DNA of 47,784 nt. Origin: a virus. Its lineage: Duplodnaviria; Heunggongvirae; Uroviricota; Caudoviricetes. A program made the position numbers and the translations under genes. Position 1 is the stretch's first letter, and each line of letters opens with the position of its first letter. Location of the stretch: IMG/VR virus record IMGVR_UViG_2706794696_000014. One strand, written 5' to 3'. This document shows, one piece after another, positions 11,759-18,181 of the stretch. A model generated the notes under the pieces. The model saw only the letters and a program-made list of their open reading frames with translations. It was not told the DNA's origin and ran no database searches.

Positions 11759-11832
11759 ACGTTACTAGATCAAAGAGCATTAGTTCATATGTAAATTGAC
11801 ATTTTTCTGGCACAGGGGAGAGCTAGCGTGGT

Positions 11833-11858
11833 TGTCCGCTTTGTGCCAATAGCGGACA
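11833..11858. promoter_or_regulatory. Perfect 8-bp inverted repeat (TGTCCGCT-N10-AGCGGACA) upstream of the AT-rich two-gene operon
   Basis: Read directly from the sequence; followed by a consensus Shine-Dalgarno TAAGGAGG (11884-11891) and a TATAAT hexamer at 11929-11934. Confidence 0.3.
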
Positions 11859-11896
11859 TTGCTGGCTCATGGTATGTTAGTTTAAGGAGGCAGGTT

Positions 11897-12919
11897 ATGC
11901 CCTGTATTTCGCTGTGGTATAATAGTTGCGCAATTGATACAAGGGAGCGTTACATCGTGAAAATTGTTTTCGAGGTTAATGGAAAGAAAGTTCCACTAAA
12001 ATCTTTAAAATACATAAGCAAAAAAGATCAACTCGAAGTAATGAAAAACTGGTTCTTTGAAAACTTTGAAGATCCGGCAAATGCTTGTCCGTATGAAAGT
12101 AGAGAAGGTGGCTATGCTTACATATATGGCGGGCCGTATGATGCGAGCGAAGAACTACAATCCATCTTCGGTCAATATGTTAAATCTGAGTATATTGAGG
12201 AATTAGTAGATGAATTACAAACACAATGTTTTGACTGGTCTGGAAACTCAAATAATATAGATGATTGGTACGATGATGATATCTACGACGCTGTAACGTC
12301 TTCCGGTAATCCGTATTTAAAATTCATTGATAATATCGATAAAATAAAAAAACTTGCAAAAGATAAAACTGAACAACAGCAAAAAAACCACTTGCTTAGT
12401 TTGCTCTACACGAATGTTATTACAGCTTTGGAAACGCTTTATGTTGAGCTATTCATTAATTCTATAGAGAAAGATGATGTCTACATAGCCAATTGTATAG
12501 AAAAAGGTAAGACTGAATTTAAAGTAAGCAAAGATATTGCTGCGTTGCCTTTCAAGGGTGAACCCATCGAGAAAATTAGGGGAGAGCTAATCAGGTCAAT
12601 CAAGGAACACTTGATCAGTGCAAGCTGGCATAGCACTAAAAAGGTAATCGACCGCTATGAAGCTACATTCGATATAAAAGTACAAAAAGACTGTCCGATA
12701 GAAGCTATTGAATTGGCAACCCTCAATCGAAATCACTTAGTGCATCGTGGTGGAAAGGATAAAGAAGGGAACCTCGTAGTGATTACAGACCAGGATCTTG
12801 AAACGCTGATTGAAAATGCATCGAACCTGGCAATTATGCTCTACAACAGTTTAAATGTAGCAACGAATAAAACCACCATTTTGCAACCAGATGACAAACC
12901 GTTCATTCATGAATTTTAA
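11897..12919 (+). CDS. Unknown protein, gene 1 of AT-rich accessory operon; carries a candidate HEPN-type R-x4-H motif (LNRNHLVHRGG) near the C-terminus
   Basis: ATG at 11897 six nt after TAAGGAGG (GTG alternatives at 11828 and 11957); markedly AT-rich, K/N/I/E/D-rich coding sequence unlike flanking phage genes; no family recognised by eye. Confidence 0.6.
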   Translation: MPCISLWYNSCAIDTRERYIVKIVFEVNGKKVPLKSLKYISKKDQLEVMKNWFFENFEDPANACPYESREGGYAYIYGGPYDASEELQSIFGQYVKSEYIEELVDELQTQCFDWSGNSNNIDDWYDDDIYDAVTSSGNPYLKFIDNIDKIKKLAKDKTEQQQKNHLLSLLYTNVITALETLYVELFINSIEKDDVYIANCIEKGKTEFKVSKDIAALPFKGEPIEKIRGELIRSIKEHLISASWHSTKKVIDRYEATFDIKVQKDCPIEAIELATLNRNHLVHRGGKDKEGNLVVITDQDLETLIENASNLAIMLYNSLNVATNKTTILQPDDKPFIHEF

Positions 12920-12934
12920 TAGCGCAGGTCATAC

Positions 12935-13936
12935 ATGGATATTCGCACACGAAAGACAAAATTTTTAGAGTCGTTAGATTCAACTGAAGTGATACGCAAA
13001 GCAGTAAGTCTCGCTATAGATTGCATTATTGATAATCATAATAGTAATGAAGATACCCCCTTAGTTATTACCAGCTATGATGATCTCTGTAGAATCCAGG
13101 TGCTAAATTATGTACAGGAGTTTTGCGAAGCTGCATTCCCTGATATGGATGAATATTACTTTAGTCCTAACATACTTCGCATCAACGGCAAGACTAGTGA
13201 AGAAGCTTGTATTAACTTAATTAAACTCTTAAGAAGTACAAAAGGCATGCTATTCTGGTCCGATGCCCCATCGTGGTTCGCTAGCCTCCCCGACGGATTA
13301 TTCCATGTTGTTAACATTGATCAAAAAATCGTTACTCGCGGCCTTAATAAGAAAAACTCTAAGCCGACAATAATCAATAAAGATTACAGTGTAGATACAC
13401 TACTATCAGAGCTATTTTTGAATGGCGCACACATGGAGCAACCCAACGTACACAACGTTTCTGAGGGAAACATGAAGTTCTATGATGAATGCCATGCTGG
13501 ATTAATCAGACCAATACCCGCTCCAATAGGCGCGTCATACGATGAAGAGATCACAATTAATTCTCCAGATTGGCAAAAGCTCGCGTGTGTAGCTTTACGC
13601 CGCTATCAGTCGAAGGAATGTCATGACGGAATGCAATGGGATACAACCGATCATGGTTGGACTGATGTAATCGCGTATCCATTCGTCGAAGAAATACAAT
13701 CAATGGATAATAGTGGTTATCGACAATGTTTAGTTGGGCTGGTCACAATAAACAATTCAAATGCAAATTCTCCGTACCTATCTACCGTTTGGATACATCC
13801 ATTTTATCGCAGGAGAGGGTTATTAAGTAAGTTATGGCCAAAATTACAAGAGTTATATGGAAGTAACTTCGAAATTGAGCGACCTAATGAAAATATGAAA
13901 GCATTTCTGAAAAGTGCGAAACACGCAGATTACTAA
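12935..13936 (+). CDS. Unknown protein, gene 2 of AT-rich accessory operon; C-terminal GNAT-like acetyl-CoA-binding motif (VWIHPFYRRRGLLSKLW)
   Basis: 333-aa ORF starting 15 nt after the gene 1 stop (operonic); AT-rich; the motif resembles GNAT motif A but the domain looks short. Confidence 0.6.
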   Translation: MDIRTRKTKFLESLDSTEVIRKAVSLAIDCIIDNHNSNEDTPLVITSYDDLCRIQVLNYVQEFCEAAFPDMDEYYFSPNILRINGKTSEEACINLIKLLRSTKGMLFWSDAPSWFASLPDGLFHVVNIDQKIVTRGLNKKNSKPTIINKDYSVDTLLSELFLNGAHMEQPNVHNVSEGNMKFYDECHAGLIRPIPAPIGASYDEEITINSPDWQKLACVALRRYQSKECHDGMQWDTTDHGWTDVIAYPFVEEIQSMDNSGYRQCLVGLVTINNSNANSPYLSTVWIHPFYRRRGLLSKLWPKLQELYGSNFEIERPNENMKAFLKSAKHADY

Positions 13937-14489
13937 TTTATGAATCAGTCTGTGGAGTTAGGGTTGGTGTGAACAAGTAGGGTAAGAGCCTCAACGTGAT
14001 GCTATGCCGACCTGCTCCCTGAGAATTCACACAGAAGGCTGCTAGCAATGTCTGCAGATCGCTCAAAGCGGACTAAAATGTTGGCTTGTTTCTGACTTAG
14101 AGCATTTAAGGAAGTGCTGGTGGTGACTGGTTGTTGTGTTCCATTTCTACAGAATAAAATCACAGAAACTATACCCAATAGTTGTATTGAATCACTGACG
14201 AGACAGCCTCATATTTATCAGGACTGGTGTGCGTCTAATACAGGGGGTTGTCGTGCTGGTTCTCAAATGTGCGCTGGCTATTGCGGCTGTAATGGCAATT
14301 TATTGTCTTGCTGTTGTTCTTATGGAGCGGCTTTCTGATTGATTACATACTGGCTAGAAAAAAGGTGTTACCTTGGTTTATCTTTGTCCGGCAAGGTGCG
14401 CTCATTAATCTTAAGTAAATTTATTGCTCAAGTATTCAGATTACTTCTTATGGTTGAAGTCTCCTGTCAATGTAGAACCAATATATTTA

Positions 14490-14530
14490 CAAAAATGAGA
14501 CCCGTCGGGGATAGCCCTGCCGGGTCTGAC
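14490..14530 (-). terminator. Rho-independent terminator for the minus-strand accessory gene
   Basis: On the minus strand: AGACCCG-loop-CGGGTCT stem followed by CATTTTTG; about 30 nt past the stop of the 14557..14895 gene. Confidence 0.5.
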
Positions 14531-14556
14531 TGTTAAAGCATTTTTAATATGATCAT

Positions 14557-14895
14557 CTATTTTTTGGTGCTATAGACTTTTTCGCCCGAAAAGTCTGGAG
14601 CGACCCAAAAGTTAATATTAAACTGAGCATCATCGCTTAGTTCAACACGGTGCCAGTATTGTGGTGGGCTTGTTGCAAAAGCGCCAGCATTAATGACTAC
14701 TTTTATCTCCGGTTCAGTAGCATTCTCATCAGTAAAACCATAATATGTTACAGTGCCTTCCATTACGCACAACTGCCCAAAAACACCTGCTGCTGTATTA
14801 TGATGTGTTAATAACGCTGAAGGTACGTTCTCTTTTGTGAAGAACGGAGTTGAGCGTTTGATTACCCAATCTTTAGGAATTCTCTTGTGTGTCAT
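14557..14895 (-). CDS. Small conserved protein of unknown function (possibly DUF1971 / TehB-N-like), 112 aa
   Basis: ORF MTHKRIPKDWVIKRSTPFFTKENVPSALLTHHNTAAGVFGQLCVMEGTVTYYGF preceded by a GGAGGAGG Shine-Dalgarno; sits inside the AT-rich accessory segment on the opposite strand; the family assignment is from memory and uncertain. Confidence 0.6.
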   Translation of the reverse strand: MTHKRIPKDWVIKRSTPFFTKENVPSALLTHHNTAAGVFGQLCVMEGTVTYYGFTDENATEPEIKVVINAGAFATSPPQYWHRVELSDDAQFNINFWVAPDFSGEKVYSTKK

Positions 14896-15708
14896 AACCA
14901 CCTCCTCCAAAACATGCATTAAAAATGCATCTTTTGGAGGGTTATGTCAAGCTGTTATGAAACACATAATTGATATGTTGATTAGAGGAGAAGATAGAAT
15001 AAATATGGTTGTTTTTCGTATAACTATTTGTTTTACTTTTAGTTTATGCATTCTGTGTGTTAGGAATAAGTTATTAAAGTTTAATCAAAAAATCTCGATG
15101 TAGTCCACATAGATTACTGTTACTGAACCTTATTGTGTGTATTAGTTGTGTTCTGAAATTTCAGCTTAATTATTTATGATGTATTTTTTAACGATAAATA
15201 TTTTCCCAGGATACCTTTACTGTGTATATAAATAAATTATATACGCATAAATAATGTAAAGGCGTCCTTTTAGATATATCTTATCAAATGTTAATGACTT
15301 GAGTGGGAAATATGATTCCAGCAACTTATCATGTGGCTACTTTATAAAAATAATGCCCATATAAAACAACAAGCGAAAAGGATTACGGATAAAAAAGGAG
15401 CGAGATGTGCGAACTTGTTATTTTCCATGTTTAACCACCTTAAATAATTGATGATGACGGGATGATTGCATCTGTAATGCTTTTATTGAAATGTTATGAT
15501 AAAAAAGAACTTTTGCATAACATTAAAATGTAATTTATCTAATCGTTTTTAATAATAAGTGTCGTATTTCTATCCTTGTACCAGCTATTTGATATGTAGT
15601 GTTTGTTCATGCTATGTGGGGCTTTACACCATAGCCAGTTTATTTATACTTTATTCGTCAGCCTGAACAACTGGCATCTGCTGCGCTGCGCCATCGAGAG
15701 ATTGAGAA

Positions 15709-16308
15709 ATGGCGCATATACAACTGGTCAAACAAACCTCTTCTGGTTTACTTCTCCCGGCGACGCCGGAGAGTTGCGATTTTCTGCATCAAATCAAAAT
15801 AGGTGAGTGGATACACGCAGACTTTAAGCGTGTGCGTAACTACGCATTCCACAAGCGTTTTTTCAAACTCCTGCAACTGGGATTCGATTACTGGACTCCG
15901 GTCGGTGGGGCGATCACGCCTCGCGAACGAGAACTGCTGTCTGGTTTCGTTGATTACCTGTGCGAATCAGTTGGTCGGGAACACACGCCAGCCCTGAGTG
16001 ATGCCGCAGAGCAATACCTTAACACCGTTGCGACTCGTAGAACCCGGGATACGGCGTTGCTAAAGTCGTTTGAGGCTTTCCGCGAGTGGGTAACCATTCA
16101 GGCCGGATTTTACACCGAGCATATTTATCCGGACGGTAGCCGTGGGCGTCGGGCAAAATCCATCGCTTTTGCGAATATGGACGAAGTCGAGTTTCAGCAG
16201 GTTTATAAATCTGTACTGAATGTGCTGTGGAACTGGATTCTGTTCCGTAAATTCTCCTCTCAGGAGGAAGTTGAAAATGTGGCCGCACAACTACTGGAGT
16301 TTGCGTAA
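15709..16308 (+). CDS. Phage nin-region protein (DUF1367-like), 199 aa
   Basis: ORF MAHIQLVKQTSSGLLLPATPESCDFLHQIKIGEWIHADFKRVRNYAFHKRFF; directly upstream of a small zinc-binding protein and Q, as in lambdoid nin regions. Confidence 0.7.
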   Translation: MAHIQLVKQTSSGLLLPATPESCDFLHQIKIGEWIHADFKRVRNYAFHKRFFKLLQLGFDYWTPVGGAITPRERELLSGFVDYLCESVGREHTPALSDAAEQYLNTVATRRTRDTALLKSFEAFREWVTIQAGFYTEHIYPDGSRGRRAKSIAFANMDEVEFQQVYKSVLNVLWNWILFRKFSSQEEVENVAAQLLEFA

Positions 16309-17592: not shown

Positions 17593-18181
17593 GCTGGTTT
17601 ATTGTATGCCAAATGATTATTAAAAAGGTTGTGTTAATAACAAGATCCGAAATAATATGCCTGCATATTTTTATCTTGCTTATATTCTGCATATTGTGCA
17701 TAGCAGGCTCATCCCTGCAATCAAAACTGTATGATGAGTATTTTTTGTTTTCCTTTTTTCCAGTCATCTGATGATGACCTGCTTCTTTTTAATCCGGATC
17801 GACATCAGTTTTTTAAGATAATTCCTGCGAGTTATATGCATAAATGCCACAAACTCCGCATTTTATGTGGTTGGGAGTTGCCGGGCGCGCAGTGAGTTTG
17901 CTAAGAAAACTCCTGCATGGTGAATCCCCCTGTGCGGTGGGGTGATACCATTAACCTTTTCTGTCGCCGACAGGTATCACGAACATTTTGTTCACCGGGA
18001 GGCACCCGGCACCATGCACTTCAATAGATTCTCTCCACATTATGGATATTCTTTCAGAATATCCCACGCAGACTTTGTGTAAATGTTAACAAATGTGCGT
18101 TTTATTTGATCTGATTCGCTGTTTGAGCGTCCAAAACAACGGTATATATAATCCTTTACTATATGACATATGTGAGGAAAA

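Follow-up and report, generated by a model that had tools for sequence, protein, structure and literature searches.

What role is played by two AT-rich genes that lie side by side in a lambdoid prophage and are both annotated 'hypothetical protein' in E. coli FORC_081? They occupy the + strand of the IMG/VR virus record IMGVR_UViG_2706794696_000014 (47,784 nucleotides, referred to in full as the window): one open reading frame (ORF) ends at 12919, and the other (12935-13936, 333 aa) begins 15 nt further downstream. With moderate confidence, we interpret this cassette as an anti-phage module that combines a HEPN abortive-infection ribonuclease (RNase), encoded by gene 1, with an accessory protein, possibly a protein-directed acetyltransferase, encoded by gene 2. 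A preceding examination of the DNA without database searches (the sequence-only reading) had proposed two co-directional genes 15 nt apart as a candidate defence or toxin-antitoxin module, and the ORF coordinates bear out this arrangement. The domains and motifs on which the interpretation is built are:

11957-12919, + strand: gene 1, 320 aa, with a HEPN/RES-NTD1 domain at about aa 20-112 and a HEPN domain of RiboL-PSP type at about aa 120-308.
12728-12745, + strand: R258-N-H-L-V-H263, the HEPN R-x4-H motif of gene 1, placed by an alignment of 54 sequences.
12935-13936, + strand: gene 2, 333 aa, with a family-specific alpha/beta N-domain at about aa 1-170 and a GNAT-fold C-domain at about aa 175-333.
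13787-13837, + strand: VWIHPFYRRRGLLSKLW, the GNAT motif-A-like segment of gene 2 (beta4-alpha3), placed by the Pfam PF00583 aligned region and by conservation; R292 is invariant.

The gene 1 product has an all-alpha HEPN fold with a four-helix up-and-down core. Across 54 family sequences, with identity down to 26%, R258, H263 and R264 are invariant; the residue after R258 is N or H, and the motif takes the family form R-N/H-x-L-V-H-R. The R-x4-H call (RNHLVH) made by eye in the sequence-only reading is therefore sound. By itself, the window protein matches PF18870 (HEPN/RES-NTD1) weakly (E 2e-4, 21.8 bits against a gathering threshold of 27.4) and gives no match to PF18735. Among its 54 relatives, PF18870 is found in 51 and PF18735 (RiboL-PSP-HEPN) in 30 (best E 7e-11), with homologues P0101, P0087 and P0112 above the gathering score; at the family level both domains are thus present and in the right order, PF18870 then PF18735. 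Fold, invariant catalytic motif and family-level Pfam matches together uphold the earlier suggestion that gene 1 is HEPN-like. By fold and motif it is assigned as a HEPN protein, and RNase activity is predicted.

This architecture is not new. The combination of NTD1 and HEPN was defined computationally in 2013 by Anantharaman et al. (PMC3710099), and the family was predicted, by computational analysis alone, to act as a conflict-system RNase (PMC3710099). Proteins of that MAE_18760/RiboL-PSP-HEPN group share with gene 1 the same two domains and an invariant R-x4-H (PMC3710099). The differences are that the operon partner described in 2013 was ParA/Soj, whereas here it is a GNAT-fold protein, and that the window protein falls under the Pfam gathering thresholds. 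Gene 1 is a new addition to a family known from computation, for which no experimental work was found in the searched literature.

The start of gene 1 and its likely promoter were placed by comparison among copies:

11915-11923, + strand: candidate cassette promoter, an extended -10 element TGgTATAAT (TGgTACAAT in other copies), of predicted function.
11942-11948, + strand: gene 1 Shine-Dalgarno sequence AAGGGAG (AAGGAGG in other copies), 8 nt before the GTG at 11957, placed by alignment of the upstream regions.

All gene 1 homologues start at the position of GTG 11957, several copies have no upstream in-frame extension, and the RefSeq annotation also gives the 320-aa form. The extended -10 element is conserved in all aligned cassette copies, is kept in the gene-2-only derivatives L097 and L146, and lies downstream of ATG 11897, the start chosen in the sequence-only reading. 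A start at GTG 11957 (320 aa) rather than ATG 11897 is likely on these comparisons. Given the homologue starts and the conserved Shine-Dalgarno and -10 sequences, TAAGGAGG and the ATG at 11883-11899 are probably not translated as a start; the 341-aa form and the Shine-Dalgarno sequence described as strong were probably mistaken. A consensus scan for promoters and terminators found promoter-like sites no commoner than in shuffled sequence, and missed the extended -10 element because the scan requires a -35.

The gene 2 product ends in a GNAT alpha/beta fold. Pfam Acetyltransf_1 (PF00583) aligns to aa 264-311, the same stretch that had been singled out earlier as resembling GNAT motif A, which corroborates that call. 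The window protein scores 19.9 bits against a cutoff of 20.7, and 26 of 45 gene 2 relatives match the family (best E 6e-6). The R/Q-x-x-G-x-G/A signature of motif A reads R292-R-R-G295-L-L297, in which G295 is nearly invariant; family-wide, the final residue is Leu. HAT1 heads the Foldseek ranking, with 248-306 aligned columns but a global superposition that is poor (TM 0.25); close behind come ESCO1 and the MYST enzymes, interleaved with small-molecule acetyltransferases. This ranking hints at a layout like that of protein lysine acetyltransferases, which the two-domain shape of gene 2 resembles most. A complete GNAT sheet has beta6/beta7 after alpha4; here the chain ends six residues after its last helix (H319-327 of 333), and strands of the N-domain might complete the sheet. 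No Pfam family matches the first ~170 residues, and a profile of this domain run against 1.84 billion representatives recovered 24 clusters, all with the ~330-aa architecture or fragments of it; the gene 2 family is therefore small and rare.

Searches of NCBIfam and sequence searches of PDB chains returned nothing significant for either protein, neither has an MNT/NTP_transf Pfam match, and in PHROGs both match solely families of unknown function (phrog_17908 and phrog_16994).

The two genes belong to a discrete element. The cassette spans 11834-14073 (2,240 bp) and is bounded by ~33-bp terminal inverted hairpin repeats:

11834-11866, + strand: left terminal inverted repeat GTCCGCTTTGTGCCAATAGCGGACATTGCTGGC, containing the hairpin GTCCGC-N12-GCGGAC (DNA folding energy -9.3 kcal/mol, z -2.4).
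14041-14073, - strand: right terminal inverted repeat GTCCGCTTTGAGCGATCTGCAGACATTGCTAGC, containing a hairpin with one T·G mismatch in the window, its stability not significant.

The window has no second pair of such repeats, and chance alone would give 0 matches. When copies were aligned with their flanks, which included a Serratia chromosome, metagenomic contigs, P4-like contexts and defence islands, homology was found to begin exactly at GTCCGC (11834) and to stop exactly at GCGGAC (14073). Terminal inverted repeats at both ends, together with copies in unrelated flanks, are features of a non-autonomous element of the terminal-inverted-repeat type, such as a miniature inverted-repeat transposable element or mobile insertion cassette. 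The aligned flanks show no consistent target-site duplication; no cognate transposase was identified, although no systematic search for one was made. The inverted repeat noted earlier upstream of gene 1, with arms TGTCCGCT/AGCGGACA at 11833-11840 and 11851-11858, is thus real, but it is the left boundary of the cassette and not a gene-specific operator.

The repeat motif is widespread, with one to five copies in each of about 2,500 E. coli genomes out of 5,426. The occurrences looked at lie in lambdoid prophages; in K-12, one falls within 'ydfV' in the Qin prophage, close to relBE-hokD. Other Rac-like prophages hold different cargo between the same two hairpins: a DUF5677 gene (L154) or a 269-aa gene on the opposite strand (L155). 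The hairpins of L166, L169 and L171 have an inner extension on both sides, and such double-sided hairpins appear to be common to two adjacent cassettes. No RNA family was found by Rfam at the hairpins or inside the cassette. An integron attC identity for the repeats was considered and set aside: there are two inverted copies per cassette and no GTTRRRY core by eye, an IntI integrase not having been searched for.

The prophage around the cassette is Rac-like and sits at ttcA, as read from the identical region of E. coli FORC_081. To the left, the gene order is intR, xisR, ralR, recET, kilR, sieB, ydaS/T/U, dnaC-like, DUF1627, DUF977 and then the pair; to the right follow DUF1971, DUF1367, DUF1364 and DUF1133. 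This order confirms the placement, already suggested from the DNA, between the replication and nin/Q modules. The slot is an accessory-gene hotspot. The base composition is likewise as described: GC content is 0.361 in gene 1 and 0.391 in gene 2, against 0.498 in the replication genes to the left and 0.491 in the nin-like genes to the right. The pair is present at ≥99% identity in 205-209 of 5,426 complete E. coli genomes, and its carriers include strains of extraintestinal pathogenic and avian pathogenic E. coli, for example S88, IHE3034 and the type strain ATCC 11775.

Within the cassette, the association of the two genes is close, and it centres on one further feature:

12920-12934, + strand: intergenic spacer of 15 nt, kept within 1-3 nt in every paired copy.

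The spacer is conserved across gene 1 identities of 84-100% and gene 2 identities of 73-100%. Gene 1 lies upstream of all gene 2 copies of at least ~73% identity, with these exceptions: three loci that have gene 2 only, copies that are truncated (L134 and L151, for example), and contigs that end too early to tell. Synonymous divergence is concordant between gene 1 and gene 2 in L099 (0.305/0.29), L101 (0.324/0.357) and L102 (0.653/0.636), and disagrees in L100 (0.32/0.17). Purifying selection acts on both genes: the nonsynonymous-to-synonymous ratio (dN/dS) is 0.12-0.21 in gene 1 and 0.19-0.42 in gene 2. Co-transcription, and probably coupled expression, is implied by the constant 15-nt spacing and the single candidate promoter.

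Outside this group the families separate. Gene 1 relatives, scanned in one genome per species, were found at 80 loci (~60 full-length; Acidobacteriota, Chloroflexota, Desulfobacterota, cyanobacteria and others); only in E. coli-type copies does gene 2 stand beside them, and clustering of the neighbours of all 80 loci revealed no other recurrent partner. At 54-76% identity, gene 1 relatives in Aeromonas, Yersinia, Pantoea and other Enterobacteriaceae occur without gene 2, and gene 1 is never adjacent to gene 2 relatives of ≤56% identity. The two genes are thus one unit within the hairpin-bounded clade and independent families outside it.

These distributions bear on a different account, in which gene 1 is a constitutively toxic HEPN RNase that gene 2 neutralises by binding or by acetylation; in the latter form it would parallel the AMPylation of HepT by MntA in type VII systems. 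The pattern of gene loss gives this toxin-antitoxin reading some purchase. Three gene-2-only loci keep the left repeat and leader (L097 and L146 also the promoter), followed by the last ~10-20 gene 1 codons, the spacer and gene 2. The two deletion junctions differ, so gene 1 has been lost independently at least twice by internal deletion while gene 2 and the promoter were retained. In four further E. coli genomes gene 1 is 5'-truncated and gene 2 intact, and no gene-1-only copy was seen in the hairpin-bounded clade. Tight linkage with a fixed spacer, and a gene 2 fold nearest to protein acetyltransferases, would also be expected of such a pair.

Decay of gene 2 points the other way. In E. coli SF-173 (L158), gene 1 and its native upstream region are intact, and gene 2 is split by an IS1 insertion sequence near codon 187; the gene 2 N-domain survives there and may have a neutralising role. 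More than 55 full-length gene 1 relatives without a conserved neighbour in many phyla, those at 54-76% identity without gene 2, and the gene 2 relatives that never adjoin gene 1 all argue against dependence, and a toxin-first gene order is atypical. As decay is seen on both genes, strict toxin-antitoxin dependence is unsupported: both families are mostly solo, each gene is kept in places without an intact partner, and the obligatory co-occurrence implied by the toxin-antitoxin proposal is not observed. We regard that proposal as rather unlikely. In E. coli MB56 (L156), ISSen4 copies lie in the gene 1 leader and between the genes. A fitness cost of expression is one possible cause of such recurrent insertions; the AT-richness of the target is another. 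An IS2 in O78 strain 3 (L157) lies just outside the left repeat; it was considered as a sign of silencing and dropped, the insertion being outside the cassette.

The same separation of families could mean that two independent single-gene modules share one cassette without functional interaction. Both families are mostly solo, solo copies of each occur in defence-island-like neighbourhoods, and purifying selection persists in the gene-2-only cassettes. Set against this are the fixed 15-nt spacer and single promoter, and the retention of the pair to a synonymous divergence of ~0.65. A further hint of a functional link, in one case, comes from Marinomonas, where a solo gene 2 relative lies divergent from an Abi_2-family HEPN gene, a second, independent adjacency of a gene 2 relative with a HEPN gene, in this case of a different family. 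Full independence is, in our estimate, distinctly unlikely.

The case for a role in defence comes from what surrounds the pair and from what replaces it. Further cargo was collected by a pattern scan of viral contigs (L159-L207 among the repeat-bearing loci). Between or beside the same repeats are found: Rst_3HP (Hp1-3); a PD-T7-1-like gene with a 156-aa partner; a DRT reverse transcriptase (RT_UG17); an AbiC-like gene; an Mrr_cat+nSTAND1 protein; and DUF5677 genes. The identifiable cargo between these repeats is mostly defence-related. In L100 and L094 the pair adjoins Gabija-like OLD-ATPase and UvrD-helicase genes, recognised by eye, and the gene-2-only copy of L146 comes after a full-length PD-Lambda-4_A homologue. 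Solo gene 2 relatives keep similar company: one with 46% identity (L115) lies between PD-Lambda-1 and a PDC-S06 (PrrC-like) gene, and another (L121) follows HerA. Beside solo gene 1 relatives lie genes for RmrA/CapP-like ImmA/IrrE peptidases, for SoFic and for a type I restriction enzyme, as well as several PADLOC candidate systems.

One might instead read the cassette as a lysogenic-conversion or housekeeping moron (for example, a small-molecule or antibiotic acetyltransferase with an RNA-processing protein), or read gene 2 as a counter-defence or self-immunity function of the prophage. The same slot does carry non-defence cargo such as QueH, and the missing PADLOC match fits a role of this type. 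An intact HEPN catalytic motif, the predominance of defence genes among the identifiable cargo and the defence-island neighbourhoods of both families make it very unlikely.

Several observations weigh against the anti-phage interpretation. PADLOC v2.0.0 has no model for either protein; in searches of PADLOC-DB v2.0.0, gene 1 had no significant match (best E 0.01) and gene 2 had 0 matches. The neighbourhood association is qualitative, without a background rate. GNAT motif A of gene 2 is only partly canonical, because of which acetyl-CoA use stays a prediction, and the candidate promoter is a conserved consensus match and nothing further. None of the isolated phage records in INPHARED carries the pair. 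The defence half of the earlier proposal is thus strongly suggested by association, through shared repeats and island neighbours, and finds no counterpart in PADLOC.

If the anti-phage interpretation holds, the locus would act as one mobile cassette with its own promoter and two co-transcribed genes, in a cargo slot that lies between hairpins in a lambdoid (Rac-like) prophage and most often contains anti-phage systems. Gene 1 would be the effector, a HEPN ribonuclease whose active site, by analogy with other HEPN enzymes, would lie where the R-x4-H motifs of two subunits meet. Until infection is sensed the enzyme would remain inactive, restrained plausibly by the conserved N-terminal HEPN/RES-NTD1 domain, which is likely to serve in sensing or autoinhibition, or by the state of oligomerisation. 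Upon activation by this putative trigger, gene 1 would cut RNA (tRNA, rRNA or mRNA), translation would stop, and the infection would be aborted. Gene 2 would add a second activity or tune the system, perhaps through acetyl transfer or contact with the gene 1 protein, and would not be an obligatory antidote. Its persistence alone, with defence-island neighbours of its own, suggests a function independent of gene 1; the fixed coupling to gene 1 within the clade suggests that it adds to or tunes the system.

Comparison with characterised modules helps to define this arrangement. In type VII systems, MntA AMPylates HepT. In the present locus, unlike these HEPN/MNT pairs, the partner is a GNAT-fold protein and not an MNT nucleotidyltransferase, the gene order is reversed, and there is no mutual dependence. 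The TacAT, AtaRT, KacAT and ItaRT toxins are single-domain GNATs of ~170 aa preceded by a DUF1778/ribbon-helix-helix antitoxin. They share with gene 2 a GNAT-fold protein in a two-gene mobile module; unlike them, gene 2 has 333 aa and a unique N-domain, has no ribbon-helix-helix partner, follows a HEPN gene, and resembles HAT1, MYST and ESCO1.

The closest functional parallel for gene 1 may be HepS of the Salmonella prophage Gifsy-1, a solo HEPN abortive-infection anticodon nuclease (Sargen et al., Nature 2026, PMC13043305) that is inactive by default and needs no obligatory inhibitor (PMC13043305). In both cases the HEPN gene lies in an accessory region after the lambdoid replication genes, and a like mechanism is proposed for gene 1. 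The slot itself recalls the variable hotspots for defence genes in P2/P4 elements and in prophages (Rousset et al. 2022, PMC9122126; Vassallo et al. 2022, PMC9519451): a fixed position in a temperate element holds interchangeable defence cargo, here exemplified by Rst_3HP and the PD-T7-1-like gene between the same repeats, and some copies of the pair lie in P4-like contexts (L100, L147). It differs in being located in lambdoid prophages, downstream of a DUF977 gene, and in being bounded by hairpin repeats. The hotspot papers searched as text make no mention of ~33-bp inverted hairpin repeats, and no description of the HEPN-plus-acetyltransferase pairing or of the hairpin-bounded cassette format was found in the searched literature.

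HEPN RNases are recurrent effectors of bacterial immunity, and the NTD1-HEPN type is known from computation. Judged from its sequence, the cassette is a good candidate for a new phage-defence module, and its small size (2.2 kb) makes it directly testable by cloning. Should it protect against phage, it would represent a new system with an accessory acetyltransferase-fold enzyme. The bounding hairpin repeats provide a sequence signature for finding further cargo in similar slots and may explain the exchange of defence genes among prophages, satellites and islands.

Two bolder and linked possibilities are conceivable, though improbable in our view. In the first, gene 2 would be a protein acetyltransferase that covalently controls the HEPN RNase, or modifies the trigger or target of the RNase. 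This would be the acetylation counterpart of the AMPylating HepT/MntA pair, and phage-defence modules would gain a new regulatory logic. In the second, the ~33-bp inverted hairpin repeats would mark out an undescribed class of portable defence cassettes. These would be swapped among lambdoid prophages, P4-like satellites and chromosomal islands, and the exchange could proceed by: a hairpin-specific recombinase; or short-homology recombination with phage RecT/Red-type enzymes.

Relatives of the two genes also occur in other arrangements. A distant gene 1 relative lies beside an ImmA/IrrE-type (RmrA/CapP-like) peptidase gene in L063 (79-924 with 937-1779, a 13-nt gap), and likewise in L034, L053 and L039, which suggests that in some lineages the gene 1 HEPN family supplies the toxin of RosmerTA-like modules. 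Downstream of two gene 2 relatives (~44-45% identity), after ~45 nt, is a gene for a 273-aa CxxC-containing protein with no Pfam match (L116 3199-4020; L210 9021-9842); the two proteins are 77% identical to each other, and may represent a different two-gene arrangement around the same acetyltransferase family. Beside the pair in L094 (6590-7660), a 356-aa protein with no Pfam match carries an R-x4-H-like motif (AVRNSIAHRQS) and may be another HEPN-type protein.

Among the ~210 cassette sites in complete E. coli genomes, three are plasmid-borne and not chromosomal. A 3.3-kb contig labelled as a Collinsella sp. metagenome-assembled genome (L002, JAIHTM010000277.1) is 100% identical to the E. coli cassette and is most likely a mis-binned Enterobacterales contig.

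Elsewhere in the window, Rfam identifies RalA, the antitoxin small RNA of the RalR/RalA type I toxin-antitoxin system (1557-1735, 225 bits), and the small RNA STnc100 (17885-18071, 87 bits); both fit a Rac-like prophage. A region of GC 0.27-0.31 without an ORF of ≥100 aa (14920-15700) is flanked by the DUF1971 gene (14557-14919, minus strand) and a DUF1367-like gene (15709-16308). The whole interval 14074-15708 has a GC content of 0.357, indicating that a second foreign segment adjoins the cassette. Within 14044-14338, directly after the right repeat, a Cys-rich ORF without annotation starts at GTG 14114 (74 aa, with the C-terminus ...CGCNGNLLSCCCSYGAAF). L134 and L151 encode a 96-aa version whose ATG lies inside the hairpin (MSADRSKRT...), a frame that is broken in the window, and the 'ydfV' annotation over the K-12 hairpin may be related to this ORF.

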